Origin: a virus
Reading direction: 5' to 3' (one strand)
IMG/VR virus record: IMGVR_UViG_3300021560_000037
Coordinates: 1 to 37,581 of that record
Length of the DNA: 37,581 nt
In this document: positions 1 to 21,984 of the stretch, one piece after another
How the letters are laid out: the number at the start of each line of letters is the position of its first letter
Position numbering within the stretch: position 1 is the first letter of the stretch
The notes under the pieces: generated by a model
What the model was told of the DNA's origin: nothing
The model's input: only the letters and a program-made list of their open reading frames with translations
Databases searched by the model: none
Position numbers and translations under genes: made by a program

Positions 1-123
1 GCCGATCTGTGCGCTGCGGGCGTCGGCGCGCCGCACATCCGACAGCGGCTATACTGGGTGGCCGACGCCGACGCAGCGCGATCACAAGGACGGCGCGTCG
101 ACGCTGGAGAATACGCCGGTCAA
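1..123. repeat. Terminal direct repeat copy 1 (identical to 37459-37581): circular-assembly overlap
   Basis: Read directly: both copies run gccgatctgtgcgctgcggg ... gagaatacgccggtcaa; repeat lies inside the dcm reading frame and preserves phase (1 and 37459 are both 1 mod 3). Confidence 0.95.
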
Positions 124-429
124 CGCCCTGCTTGGGCGGATGGTGAGTTTGGCCGGATGGGGAACGCCGCGCTCAATGGGATTGGGCCAGGGCAGCGCTC
201 GACCAAAGGAAGCGGATTTCAAGAAGGGACGGCTCGAATGCCAGGCCCTTGGAGTAATGCCGTTTGGCTCCCCTGCCTCGACGGAAAAGCGCGGCGCGTT
301 GAACCCGGCATTTTCCCGTTGGCTCATGGGGTTCCCGCCCGAGTGGGACGCCTGCGCGCCTACGGCAACGCCGTCGTCCCGCAAGTCGCGGCCGCGTTCA
401 TCGCTGCCTGCGTTGAGGTGATGGCATGA
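1..429 (+). CDS. dcm: DNA (cytosine-5)-methyltransferase, 3' part (same gene as 37057..37581 joined across the circular junction)
   Basis: Frame +1 continues ...GAPHIRQRLYWVA (motif VIII) and ends ...DGKARRVEPGIFPLAHGVPARVGRLRAYGNAVVPQVAAAFI (motif X, GNxVP); stop 427-429 overlaps terL ATG (ATGA). Confidence 0.85.
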   Translation, partial: ADLCAAGVGAPHIRQRLYWVADADAARSQGRRVDAGEYAGQRPAWADGEFGRMGNAALNGIGPGQRSTKGSGFQEGTARMPGPWSNAVWLPCLDGKARRVEPGIFPLAHGVPARVGRLRAYGNAVVPQVAAAFIAACVEVMA

Positions 430-1709
430 CCGAGCGGCAGGCGCAGTTCCCCGGTGTTCTTGCGCCGCTGTTCCAGGCGAGCCGCTACAAGGTGCTGTAC
501 GGCGGCCGCGGCGGCGGCAAGTCGCACGGCATCGCCACCTATCTGCTCGCCGAGGCGGCCAGCCGGCCACTGCGCGTGCTGTGCTGCCGTGAGTTTCAGT
601 CGAGTATCCGGGAATCGGTGCACAAGCTGCTGTCGGACCTGATCCTGAAGCATAACCTTGGGGGTTTCGACGTTCAGGAAAAGGGGATCAAAGGGCCCAA
701 TGGCAGCGAATTCTTCTTCGAGGGGCTCAGGCACAACACCGGCAAGATCCGCTCGCTCGAGGGGATCGACCGGGTGTGGGTCGAGGAAGCCGCAAACGTC
801 ACCCGCGCCAGCTGGGAGATCCTCATCCCGACCATCCGCAAGGACGGCAGCGAGATCATCGTCTCGTTCAACCCCGAGCTCGACACCGACGAAACCTACC
901 AGCGCTTTGTCGCTAGCCCTCCCAGTAACGCCGTCGTGATCAAGATCAATTACACCGACAATCCCTGGTTTCCCGAGGTGCTGCGCATCGAAATGGAGCA
1001 GCTGCGGGCCCGCGATTGGGACGCCTACCAGCACGTCTATCTCGGGGAATGCCGGCTGACGCTCGACGGCGCGATCTATGCCCGCGAGTTGCGCGAGGCA
1101 ACCGACGAGGGCCGCATTACCGCGGTGCCGTACGATCCGACCAAGCCGGTGTCGCTCTATGTCGATCTCGGCTGGGCCGACATGACGGCGATCTGGTTTG
1201 CCCAGCACATCGCCGGCGAGGTGCGGCTCATCGATTACCTCGAGGACAGCCAGCGGCCGTTCAATGACTACCTCAAGGAACTGCAGGCAAAGCCCTATGT
1301 CTACAGCACCCTCTGGCTCCCCCACGACGCCCAGGCAAAGGCGCTTGGCACTGGACGCAGCATCGAGGAGATCGCTCGAAGCGCAGGCTGGCGCGTTCGG
1401 ATTGTGCCCCGTCTGTCAGTCGCCGATGGTGTTAATGCAGTTCGGACGCTCTTCGCTCAAATGTGGTTCGATCGAACTGCATGCTCAGACGGTTTGCAGG
1501 CGCTGCGGCACTACCGTTACGATCTCGACCCGACCGGACAATTCAGCCGCAACCCGCTCCACGATTCCGCCTCTCACGGAGCCGACGCGCTGCGCTACTG
1601 CGCCGTCGCCATGCAGGAGCAGCGCCGCGCCGCCTACCCGACCACGCCGCCGCGCCGGCGTATCCTCGAGCCCGGCCAGCGCGCCAATGTCGGATGGATG
1701 AGGGCATGA
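426..1709 (+). CDS. terL: Terminase large subunit
   Basis: 427 aa; Walker A GGRGGGKS near N-terminus, VLCCREFQSSIRESV and WVEEA patterns typical of PBSX-type large terminases; first gene of the head block. Confidence 0.9.
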   Translation: MTERQAQFPGVLAPLFQASRYKVLYGGRGGGKSHGIATYLLAEAASRPLRVLCCREFQSSIRESVHKLLSDLILKHNLGGFDVQEKGIKGPNGSEFFFEGLRHNTGKIRSLEGIDRVWVEEAANVTRASWEILIPTIRKDGSEIIVSFNPELDTDETYQRFVASPPSNAVVIKINYTDNPWFPEVLRIEMEQLRARDWDAYQHVYLGECRLTLDGAIYARELREATDEGRITAVPYDPTKPVSLYVDLGWADMTAIWFAQHIAGEVRLIDYLEDSQRPFNDYLKELQAKPYVYSTLWLPHDAQAKALGTGRSIEEIARSAGWRVRIVPRLSVADGVNAVRTLFAQMWFDRTACSDGLQALRHYRYDLDPTGQFSRNPLHDSASHGADALRYCAVAMQEQRRAAYPTTPPRRRILEPGQRANVGWMRA

Positions 1710-1894
1710 CGACCGCGACCGACAAGCCCCCCCGAGAAGCCAAAGTCGGTAGCCGAGGCGCTCGCGCTCAAAGCAGCCGCCAGGCGAGCGCGGCCGCCCC
1801 AAGAGCCCTGGCATTTCTGTCCGATCCGCATTTGCACCGAGCCCTGCAGGTTGTGCTGGCGGAAAGCATGACCAGCGGCCGACGTATCGCATAA
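1706..1894 (+). CDS. Hypothetical protein (62 aa)
   Basis: ATG 1706 overlaps terL stop (ATGA); in-frame distal part of track ORF 1463..1894. Confidence 0.5.
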   Translation: MTTATDKPPREAKVGSRGARAQSSRQASAAAPRALAFLSDPHLHRALQVVLAESMTSGRRIA

Positions 1895-1905
1895 AGGGGT
1901 GAGCC

Positions 1906-2124
1906 ATGTGGGAAGAGGTTTATTCCGAGCCGACCGATGTCATGGAGCGGCTGCGCGTCGAAGACGGCTGGCTCTACCGCAACCGTGTGGTCGTCGACGG
2001 CTCGGCGCAGAGCGCCGGCGGCTATTTGTGGACCGCGACGCTGGCTTATGTGCCGGACGCCGCCAAACCCGGTGACACCTTGCCGATCGGTGACGATAAG
2101 CCGATCGATCTGCCGAAATCATGA
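1906..2124 (+). CDS. Hypothetical protein (72 aa)
   Basis: Track ORF; GGGG-type SD just upstream of ATG; same orientation and tight spacing in late operon. Confidence 0.55.
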   Translation: MWEEVYSEPTDVMERLRVEDGWLYRNRVVVDGSAQSAGGYLWTATLAYVPDAAKPGDTLPIGDDKPIDLPKS

Positions 2125-2405
2125 ACGACCTGCGGCTCTACGCCCTCGATGAGTTCCGCCAGGCCGGTACGAGCGAGGCTGCGCTCGGGGCGATGCACAG
2201 CGGGTTGGTATGCCTGCTGTGTGATGCCCGGAGCAACCTCGAGCCCGGCTATCTCGTGGAGCTGCGCAGCGATACCCCGTGGGACATTTACAGCATTGCG
2301 ATGGTCTGCGGGGCCTGCAGCGCCGCAAAAACCCGGGCTGAGGTTGAGTGGGATGTGGTAGGAAAGACCGTGCTGCAGTGGTTTGAGGTTGCCGGCCATG
2401 CGTAG
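2121..2405 (+). CDS. Hypothetical protein with two CxxC pairs (possible zinc ribbon)
   Basis: ATGA start/stop overlap with previous ORF; CLLC ... CGAC cysteine pairs. Confidence 0.55.
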   Translation: MNDLRLYALDEFRQAGTSEAALGAMHSGLVCLLCDARSNLEPGYLVELRSDTPWDIYSIAMVCGACSAAKTRAEVEWDVVGKTVLQWFEVAGHA

Positions 2406-2414
2406 GGGGATCCG

Positions 2415-2789
2415 ATGACCGTTACGTATTCCAATGCCCTCAAGGACACCCGGATGAACGCGGTGATCACCGCGGTCGATGCCGGCGGTGCAGCGGGGTC
2501 GATGGAGATCTGCACCGCCGGCTATGCCGCTGTGCTGGGCGCGATCACGCTTCTTCGCCCGAGCTTTACCGAGGCCAGCCAGATGATCACGGTGGCAGGC
2601 GTGCCGCTCACCGGAACCGCTGGTGCCAGTGGCACGGCGGCGCTCGCCCGCGTCAAGGACAGCAGCGGCAATGTCGTGGTGTCGGGGCTCACGGTGGGCA
2701 CCACCGGCACCGACATCATCATCACCAACACGACCGTGTCCTCCGGCCAGCAGCTGACGCTCGCCTCCGGCACGATCACGCACGGCTGA
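2415..2789 (+). CDS. Hypothetical protein (124 aa, G/T/A-rich)
   Basis: Track ORF with GGGGGA SD 5 nt upstream of ATG. Confidence 0.6.
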   Translation: MTVTYSNALKDTRMNAVITAVDAGGAAGSMEICTAGYAAVLGAITLLRPSFTEASQMITVAGVPLTGTAGASGTAALARVKDSSGNVVVSGLTVGTTGTDIIITNTTVSSGQQLTLASGTITHG

Positions 2790-2793
2790 TGCG

Positions 2794-4131
2794 GTGGCGT
2801 GGTTTGGCAACACCAACAACGCCGGCACCGCTACCAACGCGCCGCCGGCCAACGACAAGGCCGTATCAAAATTTACGCCCGATTTTAGCGGCACGCTCAA
2901 TTCGATTACATTTTATGCCTCGAGCATCCGCTCGGCCGGCTCGCGGGCGCTGATCTACGACGCCAGCGGTTCCGGAGGCTTGCCCGGCAACCTCGTCGGC
3001 GTCAGCGTCGAAGTGCCGACGACAGCGCTGGCCTCCTGGAGCAAATACACGTTCACCCCAGCTCTCTCGCTCACGGCGGGCGTCCCCTACTGGATCGGCA
3101 TTTGGTCCGGCACACTGGTCAACACGCCCTGCCCCACCCTGACCAACGGCATCGCTTACAACGCCAACACCTATTCGAGCACCGGCAACCCCTCAAACCC
3201 GTTTGGTGCCAGCCCGACCATCGCCAACTTCGTCTATCCTGTTGCCGGCGTCTATGATCCGGCATTTATCACCGGTTCGCCTAATAGCTGGCGCGGCTAT
3301 CCCTCGGCCGCCGACCCGACTAACACCCTCTCAAACGCACCCCCCGCCAATTGGATGGTGGTGTCGCCGGTCAATGCCAACACAAGCGGCACGGTTAACA
3401 GCATCAGCTGGTACAGCGCCGCCGCTGCGACCGGTCATGTCAAGGCGATCATCTACGACTCGTCCGGCACCGGCGGTGCGCCTGGTGCGCGGCTGGGTGT
3501 GTCGAACGAGATCACCAACCCGGTGATGGGGCTAAACACCGCGACCTTTTCCTCGGGCATCCCTGTATCCGGCAATATTTATATCGGGCTGCATGCCGAT
3601 GTCGCGCTGCCGAGTTATGCCGGCTCGTTGGGCGGGCCCGGCAACGGCTACTCGATCGCAGCGACTTACGCGAGCGGGCCGCCAAGCACCTTTGGCAGCG
3701 GCTCGTCCGGTTCCACGACGATCAATATCTGGGCCAATGGCACGTTTACCACGGGCCAATCGCTGGCGCTGGCGGCAACCGACCCGACCGATCATGCCGC
3801 GTTCAATGTTCAGGTGTTTACGCGGCTGCAGCTCACGCTGGCGGCAACCGACCCGGTTGATCACGCCGCGTTTAACGTGTCGGTCCGGAACAACTGGATC
3901 CTCAATCTCGCGGCGACCGAGGCGGTCGACCATGCGGCCTTTGCGGTCACCGTCGTCCCGCTTCCGGTGGATACGCTGAACCTGGCCGCAACCGAGGCGC
4001 CGGACGCGATGACCAGTTCAATTGTTGCGGTTACGCCCGAGAACAGCTTGCAGTATCATGTCAAGGGTTCTTTTCTGCGGCCGCCGGTCGATCGTGACCC
4101 GGCACCGCGCCACGGACCGCGTAGGCGATAA
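2794..4131 (+). CDS. Repeat-containing protein, probably virion-associated (two tandem ~190-aa domains plus four C-terminal ~20-aa repeats)
   Basis: GTG start; NAPPANDKAVS..GTLNSITFY..ALIYDASGSGGLPG repeated as NAPPANWMVVS..GTVNSISWY..AIIYDSSGTGGAPG; C-terminal L.LAAT[DE]..DHAAF.V.V x4. Confidence 0.6.
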   Translation: MAWFGNTNNAGTATNAPPANDKAVSKFTPDFSGTLNSITFYASSIRSAGSRALIYDASGSGGLPGNLVGVSVEVPTTALASWSKYTFTPALSLTAGVPYWIGIWSGTLVNTPCPTLTNGIAYNANTYSSTGNPSNPFGASPTIANFVYPVAGVYDPAFITGSPNSWRGYPSAADPTNTLSNAPPANWMVVSPVNANTSGTVNSISWYSAAAATGHVKAIIYDSSGTGGAPGARLGVSNEITNPVMGLNTATFSSGIPVSGNIYIGLHADVALPSYAGSLGGPGNGYSIAATYASGPPSTFGSGSSGSTTINIWANGTFTTGQSLALAATDPTDHAAFNVQVFTRLQLTLAATDPVDHAAFNVSVRNNWILNLAATEAVDHAAFAVTVVPLPVDTLNLAATEAPDAMTSSIVAVTPENSLQYHVKGSFLRPPVDRDPAPRHGPRRR

Positions 4132-6456
4132 ATGCGCAGCACGCCAGGAGCAACTCGCGGATACCGCGATCCCTCGCGCAACGAAACCGCCGCCGAGATC
4201 CGCGGCGACGGTGACGAAACCGACGAGGATATCCTCTACGAGGCGCGCGAGCGGTTCCGCCGCGTCGTCGACTGGGAGACGGACTACCGGGCCCGCGCGA
4301 TCGATGACACGCGCTTTGTCCACGGCGATTCCGACAATCACTGGCAGTGGAGCGATAATCTTTATTCCGAGCGCGCCGAGCGGCCGAGCCTGACCATCAA
4401 CAAGACCCGGCAGCACTGCCTGCAGATCATCAACGACGCCAAACAGAACAAACCACAGGTGCGCATTAGCCCGGTGAGCGACGAAGCAACCAAAGCCTCG
4501 GCCGATATCTTCGAGGGCATCTGTCGTCACATCGAGTACGTCAGCAACGCCAGCGTTGCTTACGACACCGCGACCGAGCACCAGGTGCATGCCGGGATCG
4601 GCTGGTGGCGAGTCGTCCGCGAGTACGAGCGCGAGGACGGGTTCGAGATGGGATTGCGCATCCAGCGCATCCGCGATCCCATGTCAGTCTACATGGACCC
4701 CGACATCCAGGAGGTCGACGGCAGCGACGCGCGGTTCTGCTTTGTCGTCGACGACATCGCTCGCGATGAATTCGAATCGAAATACCCCGAATATCGCGAC
4801 CGCATCCCACAGGGCACCTTTGCTGGCGACGTGATCGAGGGCGGCTGGCTCGATGAATATCATGTCCGGGTCGCGGAGTATTTTCGCCGGGTCGATTACG
4901 ACGATACCCTCCACATGCTCCCTGACGGCTCTACAGTGCATGAAAGCGAATTGGGTGGGGACGATACCCTCGACAATCTTCGTGTGCTCAGCGTGCGCCA
5001 GAGGGACGTACAGCGGCAACGTATCGAGTGGATCAAGATCGTCGGCGGGGTGATCGTCGACGAGCACATCGAGCCGGGGAAATACATCCCGCTGATACGC
5101 GCGATCGGCGAGGAGGCGGTCATCGAGGGGCGCCTCGAGCGCAAGGGTCATGTCCGCGCGATGAAAGACCCGCAGCGGATGTACAATTACTGGAGCTCGA
5201 GTGCGGTCGAATCGGTGGCGCTGCAGAGCAAAACGCCGTGGGTCGCGCCGGCCGAGGCGATCGAGGCGTATCAGCGGTTCTGGGATACCGCGAACACCGA
5301 AAACCACAGCGTGTTGCCCTGGAACGCGCGCGACGACCAGGGGCAGCCACTGCCGCCGCCGACCCGCGCCGAGCCGCCGCAGATGCCGCAAGCCTATATC
5401 GCCGGGATGCAGGCCGCGGGGCAGGAACTGATGATGGCATCGGGCCAGTACCAGCCGACGTTGGGACAGCCGAGCCCGACACAGGAGACGAGCGGTAAAG
5501 CGATCGCGCTACGGCAGAGACAAGGTGACAATGCGACATATCACTACATCGACAACCTTGCTATTGCTATCCGATTTACTGGGCGTATTCTTCTGGATCT
5601 CATTCCTATTGTATATGATACACCTCGTGTCCTGAAGATTATGGCGGTTGACGGGACGGTCGACCAGGTCCAGTTGAACCCGCAGCAGCCGCAGGCACTG
5701 CAGACCCAGCCCAACCCGCAGCAGCAGCAGCAACCGCCCGGCGGCGTGGCGCCGACGCCGACGCAGCAGATGGCGCAGAGCGTGGTGCGGATCTTTAACC
5801 CGTCGGTCGGGCGGTATGAGGTGCAGGCCGATGTTGGGCCGGCTTATGCGACCAAGCGGCAGCAGGCGTTTGACGCGTTCTTGCAGATCACCACGACGGC
5901 GCCGCAGCTGCTCAATGTCGCCGGTGATTTGTTGTTCAAATCGGCCGATTTCCCCAATGCCGAGGATCTCGCCGAGCGGCTGCAGCGGCTCGTGCCGCCG
6001 AATGTCCTGGGGCAAGGCCCATCGCAACAGGAACAGCAGCTGCAGCAGCAACTGCAGGCATCGCAGGCGCATGTCGCGCTGCTTGCCGAGAAGCTCGCGG
6101 TCAGCGAGATGAAGCACAAGGTCGGGGCCGACAAGAGCGAGATCGAAGCCTACCGCGCGACGACCGAGCGCATGGGCAAGCTGCTCAGCATGAACAGCAC
6201 CGACGGTCCCTATGTCGACGGCACCGAGGTGCGCGCGCTCATCCAGACGATGGTGCGCGACGCGCTGCAACAGGCAGGGATGGCGCAGGTATCACAGGTG
6301 GCGTTGCGTGACACGCTGGAAACGGATCAGACCCTCAACGCGCTGGCGCCGCAGCAGAACCCGCAGACGGTGCCGTTTGGCCAGGTGCCGGGGCTCGCCA
6401 ATGGGCAGCTGGCGGCGCTGTCGTCCGTCAATCCGCCGAGGATGCCGGGAGGATAA
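4132..6456 (+). CDS. Portal protein (P22 gp1-like)
   Basis: 774 aa, largest head gene after terL; N-terminal RERFRRVVDWETDYRARAIDDTRFVHGD..QW...RPSLTINK pattern of P22-type portals; Q-rich helical C-terminal tail. Confidence 0.85.
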   Translation: MRSTPGATRGYRDPSRNETAAEIRGDGDETDEDILYEARERFRRVVDWETDYRARAIDDTRFVHGDSDNHWQWSDNLYSERAERPSLTINKTRQHCLQIINDAKQNKPQVRISPVSDEATKASADIFEGICRHIEYVSNASVAYDTATEHQVHAGIGWWRVVREYEREDGFEMGLRIQRIRDPMSVYMDPDIQEVDGSDARFCFVVDDIARDEFESKYPEYRDRIPQGTFAGDVIEGGWLDEYHVRVAEYFRRVDYDDTLHMLPDGSTVHESELGGDDTLDNLRVLSVRQRDVQRQRIEWIKIVGGVIVDEHIEPGKYIPLIRAIGEEAVIEGRLERKGHVRAMKDPQRMYNYWSSSAVESVALQSKTPWVAPAEAIEAYQRFWDTANTENHSVLPWNARDDQGQPLPPPTRAEPPQMPQAYIAGMQAAGQELMMASGQYQPTLGQPSPTQETSGKAIALRQRQGDNATYHYIDNLAIAIRFTGRILLDLIPIVYDTPRVLKIMAVDGTVDQVQLNPQQPQALQTQPNPQQQQQPPGGVAPTPTQQMAQSVVRIFNPSVGRYEVQADVGPAYATKRQQAFDAFLQITTTAPQLLNVAGDLLFKSADFPNAEDLAERLQRLVPPNVLGQGPSQQEQQLQQQLQASQAHVALLAEKLAVSEMKHKVGADKSEIEAYRATTERMGKLLSMNSTDGPYVDGTEVRALIQTMVRDALQQAGMAQVSQVALRDTLETDQTLNALAPQQNPQTVPFGQVPGLANGQLAALSSVNPPRMPGG

Positions 6457-6458
6457 CG

Positions 6459-6857
6459 ATGGCTCTTGCCGACCTTCTGCAGAATATGAACCCGGCGCAG
6501 CAGATGATGTTCCTGCAGATGCTCCGCGGGCAGATGGGTGGCGGGACGCCACAAGGCGGTATGGGAATGCCGGGTGCCGCGCCGCCGATTGCGCCGCAGA
6601 CTGCGCTCCTGGCGCAGCGGCTGGCGCAGCCGCCGTCGACAATGGAACAGGTGCTGCAGCAGCTCGCGGCCGTCCAGCAAGGCCAGCAACAGCTTCAGCA
6701 GGGGCAGCAGCAGACGCTGGGCGCGATCAGTCAGCCGAACCCGCTCCTGGCGCAGCTCTCGCCGCAGGTCGCCGCGATGTTTAAAATGCTGAGCGGTGGT
6801 AGTGCGATGCCGCCCGGCACGCTGCAGCCGCAATCCTCGGGCGTGGGAACGGCGTGA
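6459..6857 (+). CDS. Q/M/P-rich low-complexity protein (132 aa)
   Basis: GGAGGA SD before ATG; composition-biased (QQGQQQLQQGQQQ, MGMPGAAPP). Confidence 0.6.
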   Translation: MALADLLQNMNPAQQMMFLQMLRGQMGGGTPQGGMGMPGAAPPIAPQTALLAQRLAQPPSTMEQVLQQLAAVQQGQQQLQQGQQQTLGAISQPNPLLAQLSPQVAAMFKMLSGGSAMPPGTLQPQSSGVGTA

Positions 6858-7237
6858 TGCCGCTCTTACCCTTGCAATTGCCGATGCGCGGTCTTCAGGG
6901 ACCGGCCCCCGTGCAGGGATTGCCGGCGGTCGGCGGGGCGATGCAGCCGCCAAGCGTTACCGCGCAATATCCGACGATCGGCGGTGTCTCGAACATCATG
7001 CCGGGAACGGCCGGCACGAGCCCACAGGACTGGTGGCGCAGCTGGCTATCGCAACAGGCCGCGGCAATGCAGAACGCGACCCAGCAAGCGCATCAACTCG
7101 GGCCGTTTGCTAACCAGCTGACCAACCCCAACGCGATGGCGCAGGCGCATCAGCTGATGATGATGCAGTACCTGATGGGCGGCGGCGGTATGGGAGGGGG
7201 CAGCCTTGCCTCAGCACCGACCGACAGCGGCGTCTGA
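6857..7237 (+). CDS. Q/M/G-rich low-complexity protein (126 aa)
   Basis: ATG 6857 overlaps previous TGA (TGATG; GTG 6854 is an alternative start); MMMQYLMGGGGMGGG tail. Confidence 0.55.
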   Translation: MPLLPLQLPMRGLQGPAPVQGLPAVGGAMQPPSVTAQYPTIGGVSNIMPGTAGTSPQDWWRSWLSQQAAAMQNATQQAHQLGPFANQLTNPNAMAQAHQLMMMQYLMGGGGMGGGSLASAPTDSGV

Positions 7238-7421
7238 CATCGCGCTCAGCCTCACCTCGTATGAGGCGGCGACGCTTGAGCTATTGGCGGCGCTCGGACT
7301 CTCCGTTTACGAGGGGAATGAGATCAGCGAGATGACCCGCGACCTGCTCGACCGCATCCCGCCGGCGGTGCTGCGTAGCGTGGCGCACAAGATCGGCATG
7401 TGGTCGGCGGAGGAGCACTGA
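7206..7421 (+). CDS. Hypothetical protein (71 aa)
   Basis: TTG start preceded by GGGAGGGGG; 32-nt overlap with the previous ORF makes the start uncertain. Confidence 0.45.
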   Translation: MPQHRPTAASDIALSLTSYEAATLELLAALGLSVYEGNEISEMTRDLLDRIPPAVLRSVAHKIGMWSAEEH

Positions 7422-7882
7422 TGGCGTCGAATATGCCCAATAACGCGCTGATACCGCAGACGCCGGACAATCGGCTTATGCGGCCGACCATGGCCGATGC
7501 GCTGCGCGCCGGGCCGCCGCCTGAGCCACCATCGCTTGAATCGCAGATCCCGCCGGTTGCCCCGGGTTCCGAGATCTCCTCGCGCGTTCCCGTGCCACCC
7601 GACCACTTCCCCGAGGACGAGCACGACGGATTGCACGAGATGATGGGTGAGGCATTTGACAACCCCGTCGCGCAGCATTTTGTCCGGGTCGGCTACCAGG
7701 CGGCCAAAGGGCGGCATCCCAATGTTCATGCCAAGCATTTGCTGCACGCGGCCCGCGACGCTTATCATGCTGTGCAATACGGGTTTTCGCCGGTCGAGCA
7801 TGCGCTTGATTACATCGGGCAACACGCCCGCGCGCGGCATCTTGAGGAACAGGCACGCAAGGCCAATGGAGGAAACCCATGA
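7421..7882 (+). CDS. Hypothetical protein (153 aa)
   Basis: ATG 7421 with GGAGGAG 6 nt upstream and 1-nt overlap with previous stop; track ORF starts at an upstream GTG (7400). Confidence 0.6.
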   Translation: MASNMPNNALIPQTPDNRLMRPTMADALRAGPPPEPPSLESQIPPVAPGSEISSRVPVPPDHFPEDEHDGLHEMMGEAFDNPVAQHFVRVGYQAAKGRHPNVHAKHLLHAARDAYHAVQYGFSPVEHALDYIGQHARARHLEEQARKANGGNP

Positions 7883-8712
7883 GCGGACGCATCCGCGCCG
7901 AATCCGAGGGTGGCGGCCCCGGTGGCGGCCCGCCGCCGATCGAAGAGCCGGTATCCCCGCCGCCGCAGAATGATAATCCGCCGGCCGCCCCGCCACCTAG
8001 CGATCCGCCCGAGCCGGAACCGGAAGAAGCCGCCCGCGAGCGCGAACAGCGTGAACACAAGGAGCGCTTTGATCGGCTGACCCGCGAGAAATACGAGGCG
8101 CAGCGGCAGCGAGATGAATACGCCCAGGCGCTGCAGCAGATGCGCCAGATGCAGGCCAACACCAATCGGCCGCCAAACGGCAACGACAACCCGAGCCAGT
8201 GGCAGCAGCCGCAGGATCCGCGCGAGATGGGCCGGCAGCAGGGGCTGCAGGAAGCCCGTGAGGCCGAGGTCGCCCGGCGCTTTAACGACGACTGCAACAC
8301 GCTCTTTCGCCGCGGCCAGGACGAATTCGGCGATATGAGCGATGCGGTGGCGGCCCTCAACGCCGTCGGTTACGGCACTCGGCCGGACGCGCTGATGGCG
8401 CTGACCCAGCTGCCCGACGGGCACCGGGTCTATCGCGAGCTCGCCGGCAACCTCGACAACGCCGCACGCATCCTGCAGATGCCGCCGATGCAGATGGCGG
8501 TCGAACTGGCACGGATGAGCCGTGGCGCTGATGCGGCGGATGCGCCGCCGCCCGCGGCCGCCGTGCCGGTAAGCCGTGCGCCGGCTCCACTCCGCCGCGT
8601 CGGTGGCAATAGCGGGCAGGCCGAGCGGCCGCTGAGCGACCCTAATGTGCCAATGGCCGAATGGATCCGCCGCCGCGATCGCGAAGAGCGCCGCTCCCGC
8701 ATCATGCGCTAG
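7879..8712 (+). CDS. Scaffolding protein (putative)
   Basis: 277 aa between portal block and coat gene; Pro/Glu-rich N-terminus then charged coiled coil (EEAAREREQREHKERFDRLTREKYEAQRQRDEY); ATGA overlap with previous ORF. Confidence 0.6.
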   Translation: MSGRIRAESEGGGPGGGPPPIEEPVSPPPQNDNPPAAPPPSDPPEPEPEEAAREREQREHKERFDRLTREKYEAQRQRDEYAQALQQMRQMQANTNRPPNGNDNPSQWQQPQDPREMGRQQGLQEAREAEVARRFNDDCNTLFRRGQDEFGDMSDAVAALNAVGYGTRPDALMALTQLPDGHRVYRELAGNLDNAARILQMPPMQMAVELARMSRGADAADAPPPAAAVPVSRAPAPLRRVGGNSGQAERPLSDPNVPMAEWIRRRDREERRSRIMR

Positions 8713-9067
8713 GCCGGCTCTAGCCACAACACACGGTCGTTGACCATGTCGTAGCGGATCGGCCCTATCCAATGCCGGGGCGGGCGGGCGTCAAAGCGCA
8801 GCCAGCGGTGTGCGACCAACATCAGCTTCCCCTGAGCGCGGCGTTTCTTCGTTCAGCGTCCATATGGCTTGCCGCGGGGCCAAACCTGGCCGAGCACGCG
8901 CCCCTCGAGGCGCAGCGTCACCCATACTCTTTGGCGATAAAAAAGGCGGGCGGGGCCCATACGCAACATTGTGGGGGTCACGGGAGGTTGCCCCGCCCAG
9001 TCATCTCTAGGGGTTTGCGACCCGAACAGTCGCCCGCACCCTCTACCACATCCCGATATGCCAACCG

Positions 9068-9096
9068 TTGATATTTTTTATCAGCAGTGCTAATGC
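9068..9096 (+). promoter_or_regulatory. Candidate sigma70-type promoter for the coat/tail operon (TTGATA-N17-TAATGC)
   Basis: Hexamers read directly at 9068-9073 and 9091-9096 in an AT-richer patch; would give a ~210-nt leader before the coat GTG. Confidence 0.4.
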
Positions 9097-9306
9097 GGAT
9101 TTCTTCCCTTGTTGGATCTCCACGGGGGATGCGCCTTGAGCCGGCTAGAAAGCTCCGCGTCTTCACTGCGTCAGTGTGATGTGCCCTCCGGGGTGCGCCC
9201 GCATAGCCGATTCGCAACCGGCATCGATCCCAGCAACCCCTGATTGCTGCGCTCGGTGCGCTGTTTCGCTTGTCTCTCCCTGCGCACGGGCGCCGGGAGA
9301 GCATCC

Positions 9307-10521
9307 GTGGCGAATTCGCCCCTTACCATCTCGCAAATCACCCGGGAGGCGCTGCGCCTCTTCCGCAATTCCAACTGGTTTCTCAGGACGATCGGCCGCC
9401 AATTCGACGAGGAATTTGGCCGTAGCGGCGCCAAGATCGGCTCGCAGCTGCGCATCCGCCTGCCCAACGACTACACGCTGCGGCAAGGGCAGACCGCGAC
9501 CCCGCAAAACACCAACGAGCAGAACACGACCCTGGTGGTCGCCAACCAGTACGGCGTCGACGTGTCGTTCTCATCGTCCGAGCGGGCCCTCAGCTTGGAT
9601 GATTATTCGGCCCGCATCCTCGCTCCCGCCGTCAATATCCTGGCTGGCGGTGTCGCCACGCAGGTGATGTCCAACGTCGAGAGCGCGGCCAACCTGGTGT
9701 TTAACACCGACGCGTCCTCGAACATGATCAGCCCGACCGCGGGCACCTGGCTCGCCGCCGGCGCGAAGCTCGATCAGAACGGCGCCCCACGAAACGACCG
9801 GTTTATCGTGCTCGATCCGCTCACCCAGGCGCGCACGGTGACGAGCCTGACCGGTCTCTTCAACCCGCAGACCCGGATCTCCGATCAGTACATCCGCGGC
9901 ACCATGAGTGTGGATACCCTCGGCTTTGACTGGGGGATGGATCAGACCACGATCATGCATACGACCGGGGCGTACGGCACCGCCCCGACCGTCTCCGGCG
10001 CCAACCAGACCGGGTCGACCCTCACCATCTCGGCCCTTGCCGGACCGCTCAATGCGGGTGATGTGATCACCCTCGGCGGGGTCTTTGGCGTCAACCGGGT
10101 GACCAAGACGTCAACCGGCACGCTGCAGCAGTTCACACTCACTGCCCCGGCCAATACCGGCGCGACGTCGCTGTCGATCTACCCGCCGATCACACCGCCC
10201 TCGGGTGGTTTGCCGGTGCCGTTCCAGACCGTCACGGCGTCCCCCGCGGCGGGTGCACAGGTCACCGTCGGGACGGCCTCAGCATCCAACTACCGCGCGA
10301 ACTTTGCCTATTACGCAGAGGCCTTTACCCTCGCCACCGCGGAGCTGGAATTGCCCCGCGGGACACACGAGGCGGCGCGCGAGACGTATGACGGGATCAG
10401 TCTGCGTATGGTCACGGATTATGCGGTGCTGTCCGACCAATTTATCACGCGGCTTGATATCCTCTTTGGTAGTCTGTGTCTGAGACCCGAATGGGTGGTC
10501 AAGGTGGCTGATATCCCGTAA
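9307..10521 (+). CDS. Major capsid protein (P22 gp5 coat-like)
   Basis: GTG 9307 with GGGAGAG SD (track ORF begins upstream at 9244); MANSPLTISQITREALRLFRNSNWF..GAKIGSQLRIRLPN pattern of P22-coat family; position after scaffold. Confidence 0.8.
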   Translation: MANSPLTISQITREALRLFRNSNWFLRTIGRQFDEEFGRSGAKIGSQLRIRLPNDYTLRQGQTATPQNTNEQNTTLVVANQYGVDVSFSSSERALSLDDYSARILAPAVNILAGGVATQVMSNVESAANLVFNTDASSNMISPTAGTWLAAGAKLDQNGAPRNDRFIVLDPLTQARTVTSLTGLFNPQTRISDQYIRGTMSVDTLGFDWGMDQTTIMHTTGAYGTAPTVSGANQTGSTLTISALAGPLNAGDVITLGGVFGVNRVTKTSTGTLQQFTLTAPANTGATSLSIYPPITPPSGGLPVPFQTVTASPAAGAQVTVGTASASNYRANFAYYAEAFTLATAELELPRGTHEAARETYDGISLRMVTDYAVLSDQFITRLDILFGSLCLRPEWVVKVADIP

Positions 10522-10799
10522 TGGCGCAGGCGCAAATCATCCCCGGCAATGCCGGGCGCAACGACTATCCGCGGATGCTCTACCACGAGGATGGCCGCAC
10601 CATCATCGTGGAGAGCCCCGAGGAGCACGACAAACTGGCCCGTGACGGGTGGGAGCAGATGCCGCTGGAGATCCACCAGCAACGCCCGGCAACGCCCTCC
10701 CCGAGTATGTCCGGCGGCGATCCGCTGGCCATCCTGATCCGTGAAACCATGCAAAGCGTTCTCGAGGAATACGGGTTCAAACGTAAAGGAGCGAAGTGA
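10521..10799 (+). CDS. Hypothetical protein (92 aa)
   Basis: TAATG overlap with coat stop. Confidence 0.6.
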   Translation: MAQAQIIPGNAGRNDYPRMLYHEDGRTIIVESPEEHDKLARDGWEQMPLEIHQQRPATPSPSMSGGDPLAILIRETMQSVLEEYGFKRKGAK

Positions 10800-11047
10800 T
10801 GGCAAGAGATGTCCGCGGCGCGGCGCGTGTCGCCACCGGCCGAGATCCCCATACCGCCCCCAAGGAACGCGAGCGCATGGGCGGCGGCCGCTACGACGCG
10901 CGTCCCGGCACGAGCAGCATGCCCTCAGCCGCCGAGATGGACCGGCCGCCTTCCCCGTGCGGCACCTTTGGCCGGCATGGCGATGGCCGCGGCGGGATCA
11001 ACGCCGGCATCCGCAAGATCCAGGACGCGGACAAGAACGGGTATTAG
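10799..11047 (+). CDS. Hypothetical protein (82 aa, R/G-rich)
   Basis: GGAG 8 nt upstream of ATG 10799, overlaps previous TGA; high GC3 in this frame. Confidence 0.55.
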   Translation: MARDVRGAARVATGRDPHTAPKERERMGGGRYDARPGTSSMPSAAEMDRPPSPCGTFGRHGDGRGGINAGIRKIQDADKNGY

Positions 11048-11050
11048 CCC

Positions 11051-11857
11051 GTGCAGGTCGGCGATCTCATCAGCCTCTCGCTGCGCACGGCGGGGATCCT
11101 CGGCGTCGGGCAAACCGCGCTGCTGCAGGATCTCGCCGACGCGCAGCAAATGCTTGTGCTGTTGATGCAACAGTGGAGGCAGAAGAGGTGGCTGGTCTTT
11201 CGCCTGATGACCGACACGATCCCGCTGGTGACCGGGAAACCGATCTACACAGTGGGTCCGTCCTCGGCGTCACCGACCCCGGATTTTGTCACCGATGGCA
11301 ATTTCCGCCCGGCCAATGTGCAGAGCTGCTATCTGCGCCTGCAAACCGGCTCCGGGCCCAACAGCTACCCCGTCGATACGCCGATGCGCATTCTCGGGTC
11401 GCGTCAGGAATATGACCAGATCTCGTTGAAAAACCTGCAATCCTGGCCGAGCCTGATCTATTACGATCCGATCGTGCCGGTGGCGAATTTGTATGTGTGG
11501 CCGATCCCGGTGCAGACCAACTTTGCGCTCTACATCGCCTGGCAGCAGGCGATCGATCTCGCGGCCGAGGGTGCGCAGACCGTCGATCTTGAGACGATCG
11601 TCCCGGCCGAGACACAGATGGCGCTGATGTATCACCTCGCGGTGCTCACCGGCGTCAACTACAAGCTGCCCAAAGACGAGGACCTCGAGGCGGCGGCTCG
11701 CGGCGCGCTCAATGTGATGCGGCAGACCAACTACGCAATGCAGCCACTGAAGATGCCGGCCGGGCTGGTGCGCACCGGTATCCGGATGAAGAACCCGCTA
11801 GGCGGCTTCGTCTACCCCGAAACAAGCGCGAGTATTCCGACTACCGTGCTGTCGTAG
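11051..11857 (+). CDS. Virion structural protein, putative head-to-tail adaptor (gp4 position)
   Basis: GTG start; 268 aa; N-terminal LISLSLRTAGILGVGQTALLQDLADAQQMLVLLMQQW pattern seen in podovirus adaptor/tubular proteins; sits between coat and gp10-like gene. Confidence 0.4.
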   Translation: MQVGDLISLSLRTAGILGVGQTALLQDLADAQQMLVLLMQQWRQKRWLVFRLMTDTIPLVTGKPIYTVGPSSASPTPDFVTDGNFRPANVQSCYLRLQTGSGPNSYPVDTPMRILGSRQEYDQISLKNLQSWPSLIYYDPIVPVANLYVWPIPVQTNFALYIAWQQAIDLAAEGAQTVDLETIVPAETQMALMYHLAVLTGVNYKLPKDEDLEAAARGALNVMRQTNYAMQPLKMPAGLVRTGIRMKNPLGGFVYPETSASIPTTVLS

Positions 11858-11865
11858 GTGTTCTG

Positions 11866-12489
11866 ATGGGACATCTTGCGGACAACGGATTACTGGTCTG
11901 GGACCGCGGCGAACCGCTTGCCGCGGCTGACCTCAACGGCAATTTTGCGATCCTGCGGGAGTATGCCGAGCGGGCGCTGAGCCAAGCGCTGACGCCGGAT
12001 GCCGCGGTGGTCGCGCTCGAAATGCGGCTCGGCCGCCTCGAGGCTCGCCTCGACCGCGTTGAGCACATGCTGACCATGCATGAGCGGCAGCGCAACGAGC
12101 GCGAGTGGGCGCCGCTGTCTCATCTTGGGGGCGTTCTGCAGCGCGTCGACCGCCTGCAACAGAGCGTGGAGACAGCGGTCGCCCGCCTTGAACAGATGTT
12201 CGCGACGACCGACAAGATCCATAACGACCAACACCTCCGGCTCTCGCATCTCGAGCAGCAGCCCGAGGCGGCGACCCTGGAGCAATTCCAGACATTGGCG
12301 GCCGAGCACCACGACACCGCGCAAAAGGCTCATGTGTCGCTGGGCCAGGCGATCGGGCTGCGGGCCGAGGTGGCGCATGTCCGGCGCATCGCCGAGGGGC
12401 ACGATCGCGAAGCCAACCGCCGCGAATACGCGCCGCTCTCGACCGTGGCGCATCTCTATGAACGCATCCTCAAGCTGGAGGAGCGGTAA
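11866..12489 (+). CDS. Coiled-coil structural protein (207 aa)
   Basis: Heptad-rich; internal repeat ERQRNEREWAPLSHLGGVLQRVDRLQ / DREANRREYAPLSTVAHLYERILKLE. Confidence 0.55.
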   Translation: MGHLADNGLLVWDRGEPLAAADLNGNFAILREYAERALSQALTPDAAVVALEMRLGRLEARLDRVEHMLTMHERQRNEREWAPLSHLGGVLQRVDRLQQSVETAVARLEQMFATTDKIHNDQHLRLSHLEQQPEAATLEQFQTLAAEHHDTAQKAHVSLGQAIGLRAEVAHVRRIAEGHDREANRREYAPLSTVAHLYERILKLEER

Positions 12490-13934
12490 TGGCGCAGTTG
12501 CCGCTGATCCAGGGTTCATACGAGGCGCGCGGCGTCATCGCCAACGCACAAGCCTGCATCAATCTCTATCCCGAACCAAACTCCAAGGACGCGCCGTTCC
12601 CGGTGACGCATTACCCCGCGCCGGGGCTCAAGGTCGTCGAGGATTTTACCGGGACATACACCGGCGCCATCCGCGGGCTCTACAACGCGTCGGGCGGCCA
12701 GGTCTTTGTCGTCTTCGACACCGACGTCATCAGCTGGCACGGGATCGGCGCGGGCTGGACCCATCTCGGGACCATTGCCAATTCGGGCAACCCGGTATCG
12801 ATCTGCGACAACCAGACCGATGTCGTGTTCTGCGACGGCACGGCCAATGGCTGGACGCTTCCTCTGGCATCGCACGGGACGCCGGGGAGCCTTGTGGCGA
12901 TCACCGATCCGGCATGGTATGGCTCGACCCGGGTTGACTATATCGACTCGTTTTTTGTCTTTAACAAGCCGCACACGCCGACCTTTTACACCAGCACGGC
13001 GGGTGCGTTTCTGCCGCTCGATGCGACCTATGCGACACCCAAAGCCGGGTGGAACGACAATCTGGTGGCGTGCTGCGCGCTGCACGACAATGTCTGGCTG
13101 CTCGGCAATACCACGACCGAGATCTGGTTTAACGCCGGCGGGGCGACCTTCAGCTTTGCCCGCATGCCCAACAGCATTCTGCAGCAGGGGTGCGCGGCGC
13201 CGTATTCGCCGGTTGTGTCCGATAATGCCGTGTTCTGGATCAGTCAGGACCGCTGGGGTCGCAATATGTGTATGCGTGGCGAGGGCTATGCCGCCAAGCG
13301 CATCAGCACCTTCGCCGTCGAGGACGAGTGGTCGAAGTACTCGACACTGTTTGATGCGATCGGCATGTCGTATCAAATCGGTGGCCACGAGACTGTCGGG
13401 TTTTATTTCCCGACAGCCAATACCTGGTGGGGGTACGACGCGTCGACGGGGATGTGGCACAGCCGCACCTACAACGACCTGTCGACCGCATGGCTGCCGC
13501 GTTGCATGGCCGGCTGGGGATCGATCGGGTTTCCCGGGGGCGTCAACAGTATTCTCGCCGGTGATCGTACCGGGCCGCGCCTCCTTGAGTTGAGCCGGGA
13601 CCACTACGACGATTGCGGGACGCCGATCATCCGCCAGCGCTCCTGGCCGCATGTGCTCAACGACGGCAAGCGTGTCGCCCATACCCGGTTTGCCGCGGCC
13701 TTTGACGGCAGCGCCCTCGCCTCGCCATCACGCGTGACCTTGGATTGGAGCGATGACGCCGGCCACACCTTTGGCACGCCGTTGCCGCAGACGTTTCGTG
13801 ACGGCACCTATGGCCAGTATCAGTGGCAGCGGCTGGGGTATGCCCGCGACCGCGTCTATCGGCTGACTTGGTCCGAGGGCGGCGAATGCGCGCTCAACGG
13901 GGCGTGGATCGATGTCCTGCAGCAGGGGTCATGA
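12489..13934 (+). CDS. Tail hub / packaged-DNA stabilisation protein (P22 gp10-like)
   Basis: 481 aa; MAQLPLIQGSYEARG..INLYPE N-terminus and ...QWQRLGYARDRVYRLTWS C-terminus resemble the gp10 family; gene order as in P22. Confidence 0.65.
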   Translation: MAQLPLIQGSYEARGVIANAQACINLYPEPNSKDAPFPVTHYPAPGLKVVEDFTGTYTGAIRGLYNASGGQVFVVFDTDVISWHGIGAGWTHLGTIANSGNPVSICDNQTDVVFCDGTANGWTLPLASHGTPGSLVAITDPAWYGSTRVDYIDSFFVFNKPHTPTFYTSTAGAFLPLDATYATPKAGWNDNLVACCALHDNVWLLGNTTTEIWFNAGGATFSFARMPNSILQQGCAAPYSPVVSDNAVFWISQDRWGRNMCMRGEGYAAKRISTFAVEDEWSKYSTLFDAIGMSYQIGGHETVGFYFPTANTWWGYDASTGMWHSRTYNDLSTAWLPRCMAGWGSIGFPGGVNSILAGDRTGPRLLELSRDHYDDCGTPIIRQRSWPHVLNDGKRVAHTRFAAAFDGSALASPSRVTLDWSDDAGHTFGTPLPQTFRDGTYGQYQWQRLGYARDRVYRLTWSEGGECALNGAWIDVLQQGS

Positions 13935-13935
13935 G

Positions 13936-14208
13936 ATGATCCAGCGATCGCTCTCCCTCGAACGCGCCCTCGAGCGCGAGGTGGTGCGGTTTGCCGGGAG
14001 CCTGGCGTGCTTTGTCTTTTATGCCGGGGAGAAGCCGGTCGATTGCAATGGCATAGCGTTGGGCGAGCGGGTCGGCAAGCGCGAAGCGAGCGAATTTGCG
14101 GTGCGGCACCTGATGCGCGGGATGAGCCCGGGTATGCCTGATGACGCCACCTACTGGCGGCTCTATGACGCCAACGGCAATGTCGTGATGCAGGGAGACG
14201 GCACATGA
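13936..14208 (+). CDS. Hypothetical protein (90 aa)
   Basis: ATG 13936 just after gp10-like stop; in-frame part of track ORF 13912..14208. Confidence 0.5.
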   Translation: MIQRSLSLERALEREVVRFAGSLACFVFYAGEKPVDCNGIALGERVGKREASEFAVRHLMRGMSPGMPDDATYWRLYDANGNVVMQGDGT

Positions 14209-14429
14209 GAGGGATGTGCATCGGCGGCGAGCCACCCTGCTCGGCGCAGGGCATGATCGCGCCGCGTTACCAGTTCGTCGATCAGAGCGGGACGACGACG
14301 CCGAACGCGCACCGGTTCTTGTGGGGCCTGTTCAGCGCAATCTATGCGCTGGAGCAACGAGTGGGATTGGCGCAGACCCAGATCGCCGAGCTCCAGGCGC
14401 GCTTGGCGCAGCTCGAGGCGGCGGAATGA
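14205..14429 (+). CDS. Hypothetical protein with C-terminal coiled coil (74 aa)
   Basis: ATGA overlap; LEQRVGLAQTQIAELQARLAQLEAAE. Confidence 0.5.
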   Translation: MRGMCIGGEPPCSAQGMIAPRYQFVDQSGTTTPNAHRFLWGLFSAIYALEQRVGLAQTQIAELQARLAQLEAAE

Positions 14430-14986
14430 GGAATTTTCTCCCGATCGGGATGATCGACATGCTGCCGCTGCGCCTGGCGCTGCAGCGGCGTCCCGAGCTG
14501 TGGGATCAGAATGTCTACCGGACGACCTTCGAAAACACCCCGTTCCGCGGGATGAGCGACATTCTGCTGCGGTACAGCAAACCCGAGAAATGGTCCGGCA
14601 ACCGCGATTCCGAGGCGCTCGTCGACGACCTCGACCTGGTGATGTACCCGGCATGGGCGGCGCTGCCGGAGGCGCGCGAGGTCTGCTTTAACCTGATGGC
14701 CAAGTGCAAGGGGATCGCACTCGGCCGGGTGATCATCGCGCGGCTGCCGCCCGGCGGGGTGATCCTGCCGCATGCCGACGATTACGGTGCCTATGCGCTG
14801 CAGGACGGGCTGCGGCTGCATGTCGCCGTGCAGGCTCTCCCTGGATGCATCTTCAATTGCGGTGACGAGACGATCCAGATGCAGACCGACAGCGTGTGGT
14901 GGTTCAACCACAAAGCAACTCACTCTGCCCAGAACAACAGCGCCGACGACCGGGTCCACCTGCTTGTTGATATTCAGACGGGGTGA
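14426..14986 (+). CDS. Aspartyl/asparaginyl beta-hydroxylase-family Fe(II)/2OG dioxygenase (cupin)
   Basis: ATGA overlap start; GRVIIARLPPGGVILPHADD...LRLHVAV...VWWFNHKATHSAQNNSADDRVHLLVD matches the LpxO/Asp-hydroxylase core (HxD ... H, RvHL..D). Confidence 0.75.
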   Translation: MRNFLPIGMIDMLPLRLALQRRPELWDQNVYRTTFENTPFRGMSDILLRYSKPEKWSGNRDSEALVDDLDLVMYPAWAALPEAREVCFNLMAKCKGIALGRVIIARLPPGGVILPHADDYGAYALQDGLRLHVAVQALPGCIFNCGDETIQMQTDSVWWFNHKATHSAQNNSADDRVHLLVDIQTG

Positions 14987-14989
14987 GCC

Positions 14990-15457: not shown

Positions 15458-15460
15458 GCG

Positions 15461-16807: not shown

Positions 16808-16809
16808 TC

Positions 16810-21920: not shown

Positions 21921-21949
21921 CTCGCCATCCTCTCTTGGCGTTGTGGTCA

Positions 21950-21984
21950 GGAGCCGCAGGGGAGTTCGCGCTCCCCTTGGCTCC
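21950..21984. promoter_or_regulatory. Imperfect inverted repeat (6+7 bp stems) between divergent genes
   Basis: GGAGCC-gc-AGGGGAG ttcgcg CTCCCCT-t-GGCTCC read directly. Confidence 0.5.

Follow-up and report, generated by a model that had tools for sequence, protein, structure and literature searches.

The viral genome IMGVR_UViG_3300021560_000037, an IMG/VR record, carries a DNA (cytosine-5) methyltransferase (C5-MTase) locus in which two long reading frames overlap on the same strand. The whole stretch of DNA that was analysed, positions 1 to 37,581 of this record, is referred to below as the window (63% GC). Frame 0 of the methyltransferase gene was designated alpha, and the frame shifted by +1 relative to it, beta; these are frames +1 and +2, respectively, of an earlier reading of the window made from its letters alone (here called the original prediction). 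Comparison with related loci showed, at the level of sequence, that both frames are under selection, and the zones in which each of them is constrained were located. It is probable that the two nested, same-strand genes encode a two-subunit C5-MTase composed of separately translated alpha and beta proteins.

According to the proposed mechanism, alpha would be the catalytic core, with motifs I, IV (containing the catalytic Cys), VI, VIII and X. Beta would be translated from its own start inside alpha, most likely ATG 37301, and would consist of three parts: (i) an N-terminal helix and hairpin, (ii) GWPTP-type repeats and (iii) a C-terminal motif-IX-like element. It would bind alpha and supply the motif-IX-like helix, and probably the DNA-recognition part as well. 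The alpha-beta heterodimer would be the active enzyme, as in M.EcoHK31I, with methylation of phage DNA against host restriction as its likely role. Separate initiation, alpha-beta binding, the role of beta and the enzyme activity are what we infer from the data presented below.

Organization of the locus

The first 123 bases of the window are an exact copy of its last 123 bases (1-123 vs 37459-37581). The genome is circular or circularly permuted and corresponds to a 37458-bp circle. Given this end overlap and the IMG/VR class of the record ('direct terminal repeats'), the methyltransferase gene is continuous on the circle. The end overlap lies inside the region shared by alpha and beta; neither protein is encoded by one contiguous stretch of the window. 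The components of the locus are as follows.

37057..37458, + strand: 5' part of the alpha gene, codons 1-134 (open reading frame (ORF) list, translation, PF00145 and M.HhaI profile match)
1..429, + strand: 3' part of the alpha gene, codons 135-276 and stop codon 427-429 (translation, reciprocal resampling, homologue model)
37301..37458, + strand: 5' part of the beta gene, +1 frame, likely start ATG 37301 (start clustering, synonymous diversity)
2..421, + strand: 3' part of the beta gene and stop codon 419-421 (translation, PHROGs, alignment A1 of 58 homologues)
37459..37581, no strand: end overlap (123-base identity with 1-123; IMG/VR class 'direct terminal repeats')

Alpha extends from ATG 37057 to the stop codon at 427-429 and has 276 amino acids (aa); beta, if counted from ATG 37301, has 192 aa. 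Beta lies entirely within alpha, on the same strand and in frame +1 (37301 or later to 421, inside 37057..429), and the +1 frame has no stop codon between a point upstream of ATG 36911 and its end at 419-421. The two overlapping open frames described in the original prediction, together with the strings quoted there (including FFAGIGG, SCPCQP, FGEQV and AGWGTP), were all recovered with the ORF list and by translation.

The stop codon of alpha (TGA) and the ATG of terL, the terminase large subunit gene, share the sequence ATGA at 426-429; the beta stop lies 8 nucleotides (nt) earlier. On the circular map this methyltransferase gene, which is of an early type, adjoins the packaging genes and is placed directly upstream of terL.

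The second frame is open more often than codon usage predicts

A set of 80 loci found in IMG/VR with alpha as the seed was reduced to 64 distinct full genes with GC contents of 46-69%. In all of them (64/64), including the genes of 46-53% GC, the +1 frame is open over 190-342 codons, and the third frame (+2) carries 4-24 stop codons in the same 64 loci. The number of stops expected by chance was estimated by a resampling restricted to the overlap, in which one protein was kept and synonymous codons were redrawn from each gene's own usage. With the window's alpha kept, 3.5 stops were expected in the +1 frame (probability of no stop, 0.005); with beta kept, 6.0 stops were expected in frame 0, and all of 200 resamplings contained at least one. 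The corresponding values for the relatives were 3.8 expected in the +1 overlap vs 0 observed (alpha kept) and 7.3 expected in frame 0 vs 0 observed (beta kept). The probability of no stop was below 0.005 for every low-GC locus; sums of these probabilities have no formal standing, the loci being related to one another. A stop count over the whole gene gave only a weak difference (3.3 observed vs 5.3 expected), since the +1 stops fall outside the overlap and the null used each gene's own skewed codon usage.

The codon choice of alpha agrees with these results. Motif VI, FGEQV, is written TTT GGA GAG CAG GTT in the window, which reads LESRL in beta; three of its five codons have A or T in the third position, whereas the genes of this genome have a GC content at third codon positions (GC3) of about 0.8. 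The hand-counted GC3 values of the original prediction, which favoured the beta frame through the middle of the gene, were largely reproduced. Beta vs alpha frame gave 0.82 vs 0.66 for 37394-57 (0.84 vs 0.67 by hand), 0.83 vs 0.55 for 50-140 (0.78 vs 0.61) and 0.66 vs 0.59 for 140-300 (0.67 vs 0.52). Alpha reached 0.81 in its last 80 nt (about 85% by hand), and terL as a whole also gave 0.81 (85-90% had been given for its start).

Zones of constraint

Conservation of each frame was compared with the same type of null, in which the other protein is kept. With alpha kept, the identity of the +1 frame equalled the resampling null in alpha codons 1-90, and rose to 0.43-0.61 vs a null of 0.24-0.28 in codons 91-165 and 226-262 (z 29-59). 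Reciprocally, with beta kept, the identity of the alpha frame greatly exceeded the null over beta residues 1-72 and 133-192 (z 26-60) and was near it for residues 85-132 (z 1-4), which lie under the beta repeats.

The synonymous codon diversity of alpha, calculated among sequences sharing the majority residue of alpha, followed the same pattern. From 0.60-0.63 in codons 1-80 it fell to 0.42 over codons 91-100 and to 0.32-0.36 within both overlap zones, and it was 0.54 past codon 262; the drop begins at about alpha codon 92 (about nt 37330). Resolved by codon position, diversity was 0.27/0.24/0.62 in the alpha-only zone and 0.31/0.27/0.42 and 0.29/0.24/0.38 in the overlaps. A selection check of this kind had been proposed in the original prediction; its outcome is that constraint on the synonymous sites of alpha is limited to the part overlapped by beta, from about codon 92. 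Four zones were delimited by these constraint tests.

37057 to about 37329, + strand: zone 1, alpha only
about 37330 to 78, + strand: zone 2, both frames
about 79-249, + strand: zone 3, beta only, alpha merely open
about 250-384, + strand: zone 4, both frames

Judged by the resampling, it is the beta frame alone that determines the sequence of the alpha spacer in zone 3, which spans about 55 codons from motif VIII to the C-terminal block.

These tests bear on the simplest alternative, namely that the +1 frame is not translated at all and owes its openness and conservation to codon bias, high GC content or a constraint acting on the nucleotides themselves, for example RNA structure. At 63% GC long alternative frames are a common occurrence, and the null identity in codons 1-90 indicates that part of the +1 conservation over motif I does come from GC-rich codon choice. 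Such an origin is contradicted by the open +1 frame of the relatives with 46-53% GC and by the several stops that resampling from each gene's own codon usage predicts. It also fails in the repeat zone, where GWPTP...D modules persist at varying total length and alpha-frame identity is at the null, and at the A- or T-ending alpha codons, which occur in a GC3-rich genome exactly where beta needs them. From the comparisons made here, an untranslated +1 frame appears close to excluded.

Distribution of the dual-coding locus

The C-terminal 140 residues of each frame were used as tblastn queries against 50,697 phage records. Matches were obtained in 251 records for alpha and 216 for beta, at about 40-50% identity, and records matched by both queries were matched at the same coordinates. 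The separate homology search of both translations that the original prediction called for thus found phage relatives for each. The hosts of these phages include Escherichia, Klebsiella, Salmonella, Rhodobacter, Burkholderia, Xanthomonas, Pseudomonas, Vibrio and a cyanobacterium. Since an untranslated frame keeps no similarity at 40-50% identity, selection on both frames is indicated.

A pattern derived from the beta alignment was then scanned against one genome per species (185,579 species), which yielded 461 confirmed loci. The best 80 of these 461 come from Alpha-, Beta- and Gammaproteobacteria, Desulfovibrio, Acidobacteriota, Verrucomicrobiota, Planctomycetota, Chloroflexota, Bacteroidota and others. 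Within this set of 80, N- and C-terminal parts of alpha surround beta in frame -1 in every case (80/80), alpha runs without interruption in 78, and none of the 80 beta frames is broken before the end of the C-terminal motif, four apparent stops being natural ends. In cultured phages and plasmids, every beta-frame match listed, from the strongest to the weakest, lies at a methyltransferase locus; most of them fall under a gene annotated as cytosine methyltransferase, and a minority under a 'hypothetical protein', another label or no annotation. Even the weakest phage match, in Dunaliella viridis virus SI2, is in the +1 frame of a short annotated 'cytosine methylase'. Beta apart from alpha was not seen among the best 80 of the 461 beta-seeded loci or among the phage and plasmid matches listed. 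Of the readings offered in the original prediction, dual coding is therefore the one strongly supported by the comparative evidence (openness, zoned constraint and the beta-seeded loci).

Several relatives differ from the window in length or integrity. An extreme relative (L085:2374-4704), located through a 612-aa beta homologue, encodes a 776-aa alpha with the 612-aa beta nested in it, both frames being open for more than 600 codons. Its beta contains about a dozen GW(P/A/S)TP modules, its alpha frame contains some 400 residues rich in Arg, Glu, Gly and Asp and a further insert upstream of motif X, and an N6/N4 methyltransferase gene lies directly upstream. In three other loci, L008 (514-1968), L057 and L062, the alpha match is split by an extra stretch of about 280-530 nt. 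In L008 this stretch comprises about 180 codons between motifs VI and VII, open in both frames, and in the beta frame it is Cys-rich and then reads ...DRIDNSKGY..GN...; by eye it was taken for an HNH-type nuclease, which Pfam did not confirm. Locus L007:1123-1971 has an in-frame stop at alpha codon 94 with beta still open, and may be a pseudogene, a sequencing error or a case in which only beta is kept.

Among the 120 longer homologues listed, PF00145 was found in only one, P0057 (L086:306-1432). This protein was considered as a natural fusion of PF00145 with the WPTP/WLMG part and was rejected as such: it arises by a 1-nt frame swap in the repeat zone on a 2.8-kb metagenome scaffold, and motif X is left in the third frame of the contig.

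P0057 has exactly the form expected if ribosomal frameshifting or transcriptional slippage joined the N-terminus of alpha (motifs I-VIII) to the C-terminus of beta, either besides a free beta or replacing it; isoforms produced by frameshifting had also been among the readings of the original prediction. The order of the parts along the DNA (I-VIII in frame 0, repeats and motif-IX-like element in +1, X in frame 0) is likewise that of a single-chain enzyme with two frame changes. Several observations speak against this. The +1 constraint begins at about alpha codon 92, about 60 codons ahead of the end of motif VIII and thus of any junction past it, in a part that a fusion would not need. All relatives keep frame 0 open across the unconstrained spacer as far as motif X, a feature needed only for a full-length alpha. 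P0057 itself depends on a single 1-nt change on one scaffold, so it is a mutant or an error. Finally, no stop or obvious slippery run was seen by eye at the junction in the window, no systematic slippery-site search having been made. A frameshifted product is for these reasons very unlikely.

Alpha, the probable catalytic core

The following elements were located in alpha.

37177-37197, + strand, frame 0: motif I, FFAGIGG
37255-37272, + strand, frame 0: motif IV, SCPCQP, with the catalytic Cys
37369-37383, + strand, frame 0: motif VI, FGEQV
40-57 (also 37498-37515), + strand, frame 0: motif VIII, RQRLYW
about 79-249, + strand: alpha spacer, no constraint of its own (reciprocal resampling at null)
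250 onward, + strand, frame 0: conserved alpha block from W218
364-387, + strand, frame 0: motif X, GNAVVPQV

The columns of motifs I, IV, VI, VIII and X are invariant or nearly so in 58 homologues. Alpha matched Pfam PF00145 with 53.5 bits (cut-off 22), over profile positions 61-160 of 324 only, and TIGR00675 (dcm) with 36-42 bits, under the cut-off of 100.65; its profile matched residues 71-177 of M.HhaI (E 6e-18). The protein was modelled through a homologue, the alpha of locus L024, which is 59% identical to that of the window. Modelled alone, L024 alpha reached a mean predicted local distance difference test score (pLDDT) of 75 and a predicted template modelling score (pTM) of 0.69, with a confident core and motif X helix and with pLDDT below 50 at residues 183-218 (spacer) and 241-257. 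The model was superimposed on M.HhaI with Z 13.9 and a root mean square deviation of 2.9 Å over 166 aligned residues (Foldseek E 8e-8). Judged by its motifs, by a score above the curated threshold and by the M.HhaI-type fold of the model, alpha is a C5 cytosine DNA methyltransferase core of the PF00145 superfamily.

A conserved hairpin block (W..DWL.C.DGK.R.VEP) and the string PLAHGVP precede motif X in alpha. In the stretch after motif VIII, where the target recognition domain (TRD) and motif IX of a single-chain enzyme are expected, alpha identity is near the null and pLDDT is below 50.

The N-terminal region of alpha (residues 1-63, 37057-37200; L024:1072-1260) also departs from M.HhaI. The segment that carries motifs II-III between motifs I and IV in M.HhaI (34-70) is missing, a strand-helix-strand unit is present upstream of motif I (YYNEfDP.AA.WL...VDERSI.DV in relatives), and the structural alignment begins at M.HhaI residue 35. 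Sequence and model together suggest that the cofactor-binding half of alpha is arranged in the permuted order II-III-I-IV.

Beta and its start codon

In beta, the following elements were distinguished.

37301..37458, + strand, +1 frame: N-terminal helix and hairpin (SSPSAALERSLESRLRA...GSPEYALTWK)
within 2..421, + strand, +1 frame: PICALRASARRTS
56-70, + strand, +1 frame: GWPTP repeat
152-169, + strand, +1 frame: AGWGTP repeat
299-346, + strand: motif-IX-like C-terminal element, 16 residues (pattern resemblance)

In alignment A1 (58 homologues) the residues W, L, P, W, L, G and W of the C-terminal motif are invariant. GWPTP...D modules are present in two copies in the window and in one to about a dozen in relatives. 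An exhaustive protein search matched beta to 9803 clusters at 50% identity, and those examined contain no Pfam domain; a feature search of the ESM Atlas with beta returned nothing beyond viral 'hypothetical protein' clusters. In PHROGs, alpha matched phrog_363 and beta matched phrog_1008 and phrog_31772, all of which are labelled 'DNA methyltransferase'. The original prediction had named another group of phage cytosine methyltransferases with a GWxTP/WLMGxPxxW C-terminus and had suggested an evolutionary link, by frame change, between two C-terminal architectures. Since PHROGs gives the beta families the label 'DNA methyltransferase', and all phage and plasmid matches listed lie at a methyltransferase locus, this other group would seem to be the present locus seen in its second frame, and the suggested link has to be recast accordingly.

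The candidates for the start of beta are ATG 37301, with GTG 37295 just upstream, and the later TTG 37382 (behind GGAG) and ATG 37394. In most homologues a start codon is found 40-45 codons upstream of the TWK anchor, often behind AAGG or AGGA, and the shortest stop-to-stop beta frames (GC 46%) open just ahead of this point. Constraint begins near nt 37330, for which the nearest upstream starts are ATG 37301 and GTG 37295, and on these grounds beta most likely begins at ATG 37301. The start favoured in the original prediction, ATG 37394, lies about 21 codons inside the constrained part and fits less well; it would also drop a helix that is modelled in the alpha-beta interface.

A model of the alpha-beta complex and the role of beta

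The complex was modelled with L024 alpha (alignment A2) and L024 beta (alignment A1). A score of 0.92 was obtained in three runs, compared with 0.00 for the best of three controls; of 80 solved complexes, 58 attained the mark applied to this score, as did 2 of 110 mismatched pairs. At least 75% of the contacts are common to the runs, and the pLDDT of the partner is at least 66. In the model, beta residues 144-169 (the C-terminal motif) are placed against alpha residues 240-264 (motif X and the part preceding it), residues 54-59 (motif I) and the helix at the N-terminus, and beta residues 10-60 against alpha residues 138-158. The model supports alpha-beta binding but does not show it.

A number of points weigh against a two-subunit enzyme, or limit how the model may be read. 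Alpha and beta together resemble the solved single-chain C5-MTase fold, and the score may reflect that likeness. Both alignments derive from the same nucleotides, so that substitutions are coupled and could mimic co-evolution, an effect against which the controls give no protection. The same bases do encode both partners in 7 of the 25 best contact pairs (alpha 144-146 with beta 56-58, alpha 240 with beta 150); in the other 18 the separation is at least 5 codons and mostly large. The model of beta alone is poorly folded (pLDDT 62.8, pTM 0.30), only the helix (16-35) and the hairpin (40-62) being modelled with confidence. It has no match in Pfam (pieces from the window and the 58 A1 members, to E = 10), in NCBIfam or, as a profile, in Protein Data Bank (PDB) sequences (to E = 10); given this lack of profile matches, 'motif IX' denotes a pattern resemblance and a modelled position, not a demonstrated homology. 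ATG 37301 is not preceded by a clear Shine-Dalgarno sequence, and beta start codons do not occupy one fixed place across the homologues, so that the start is inferred. Alpha must bear a long unconstrained insert, up to about 400 residues in L085, which is unusual for an enzyme. Support for the two products comes from the selection seen on both frames and from the complex model.

In view of these points, beta might be real and separately translated and yet not be a methyltransferase subunit; it could instead regulate the enzyme, counter restriction, bind DNA or be some other early protein overprinted on the methyltransferase gene. This would agree with the missing match to any curated family or solved structure and with the largely unstructured model of beta alone; by eye, alpha also has its own R-x-V-E-P...PLAHGVP before motif X, which could serve as motif IX. 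Yet beta lies inside alpha in 80 of 80 beta-seeded loci, and all phage and plasmid matches listed are at a methyltransferase locus. The modelled interface is extensive and sets the C-terminal motif of beta against motifs X and I (0.92 vs 0.00, with the caveats given above), and M.EcoHK31I, the only studied enzyme with such a gene layout, requires beta for activity. We consider a role of beta outside the enzyme unlikely.

Within the two-subunit enzyme, a more specific proposal can be made, although we hold it tentatively and think it less likely to be right than wrong. Beta would be the DNA-recognition subunit, the number and sequence of its GWPTP repeats setting the target. The ancestor would have been a single-chain enzyme disrupted by two frame changes that compensated each other; a start newly gained in the second frame would have rescued it, and residues 1 to about 70 of beta would be a newly overprinted alpha-binding domain. 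If so, the specificity of a very large group of phage methyltransferases would evolve by gain and loss of repeats in one frame, and the catalytic subunit would merely carry the same bases as an unconstrained, always-open spacer.

Comparison with known systems

The alpha and beta chains of the C5-MTase M.EcoHK31I, after Lee, Kam and Shaw in 1995, are said to have about 309 and 176 aa, sizes similar to those of the proteins encoded in the window. In this enzyme of E. coli HK31 (specificity YGGCCR; Lee, Kam and Shaw 1995), the two chains must associate (PMC2836561, PMC3404938), and the whole coding sequence of beta is contained in the alpha gene, in a different frame (PMC2836561). Alpha contains motifs I-VIII, motif X and the predicted TRD, and beta contains motif IX (PMC2836561, PMC3404938). 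Loss of the beta start codons by changes silent in alpha abolished activity, which was restored by beta supplied from a second plasmid (PMC2836561), and N-terminal deletions of beta raised its dissociation constant (Kd) for alpha, i.e. weakened binding (PMC2836561, PMC3404938).

The locus of the window shares the gene layout and, it appears, the involvement of the N-terminal part of beta in binding alpha (from the Kd there, from the model here). Alpha of the window holds motifs I, IV, VI, VIII and X, and the end of beta has a motif-IX-like pattern and a modelled place next to motifs X and I, with no profile match to PF00145 or to a PDB chain. The two systems differ in other respects. The predicted TRD of M.EcoHK31I is in its alpha, whereas in the window the alpha region from motif VIII to the C-terminal block is at the null (z 1-4) and conserved repeats are found in beta; this difference between the sequences argues against strict sameness with M.EcoHK31I, not against the same working principle. 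The literature on M.EcoHK31I mentions no repeats in beta. That enzyme is part of a restriction-modification pair; the gene in the window lies directly upstream of terL. The comparison was made with the published description, and the two systems may belong to the same family or be of independent origin. No match named EcoHK31I occurred among the homologues listed, and a search with the nested protein of Escherichia phage K1H listed only Kagunavirus-type relatives. The locus is a dual-coding one of the M.EcoHK31I kind, representing a large uncurated family of phages and prophages with a division of labour different from the published description.

M.AquI (CYCGRG) is likewise a natural two-polypeptide C5-MTase that must assemble and is split in or near the variable region (PMC3404938). 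Its smaller subunit carries motifs IX and X (PMC3404938), whereas motif X of the window is in alpha, and the two genes of the window, unlike those of M.AquI, overlap over almost the whole length of beta.

In phage K1H (GU196278), ORF28, a 'putative Mte8-like protein' of 230 aa, is nested in ORF29, a 'putative C-specific methylase' of 274 aa. These two frames of a cultured phage, the same as those of the window, were both annotated by the depositors, and alpha and beta of the window match K1H-type loci. The names are annotation labels only; neither the record nor PMC5582158, the one phage paper found with the Mte8 label, states that ORF28 and ORF29 form one enzyme. Searches of the literature on overlapping or alternative-frame phage methyltransferase genes found no paper describing an overlapping methyltransferase layout in phages.

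A phage gene lying wholly inside another on the same strand is also known from Rz/Rz1 of phage lambda. The products of Rz and Rz1 act as one complex, and Rz1 is much shorter than ~192 codons. These are spanin genes, one of them embedded in the +1 frame of the other (PMC9409062). Their function is unrelated to that of the methyltransferase locus, in which the overlap is longer and is kept across phages and prophages of many bacterial phyla.

Significance of the dual-coding locus

About 190 codons, a stretch of about 0.6 kb, are read in two frames at this locus, an arrangement shared by phages and prophages from many bacterial phyla. To our knowledge, double-stranded DNA phages and bacteria rarely have long overlaps on one strand with conservation of both proteins, and few such cases have been established. 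Gene callers keep one frame; most of the GenBank phage and PGAP plasmid records listed name only alpha, and most of the metagenome proteins matching beta, among those listed, are unnamed or called 'hypothetical protein'. Recoded or codon-optimised expression of the annotated gene would silently destroy beta and could yield an inactive enzyme. The locus offers a natural case of two proteins on one sequence with clean internal controls, since one zone is constrained in alpha alone, one in beta alone and two in both frames. If beta sets the specificity of the enzyme, changes in its repeats could retarget anti-restriction methylation.

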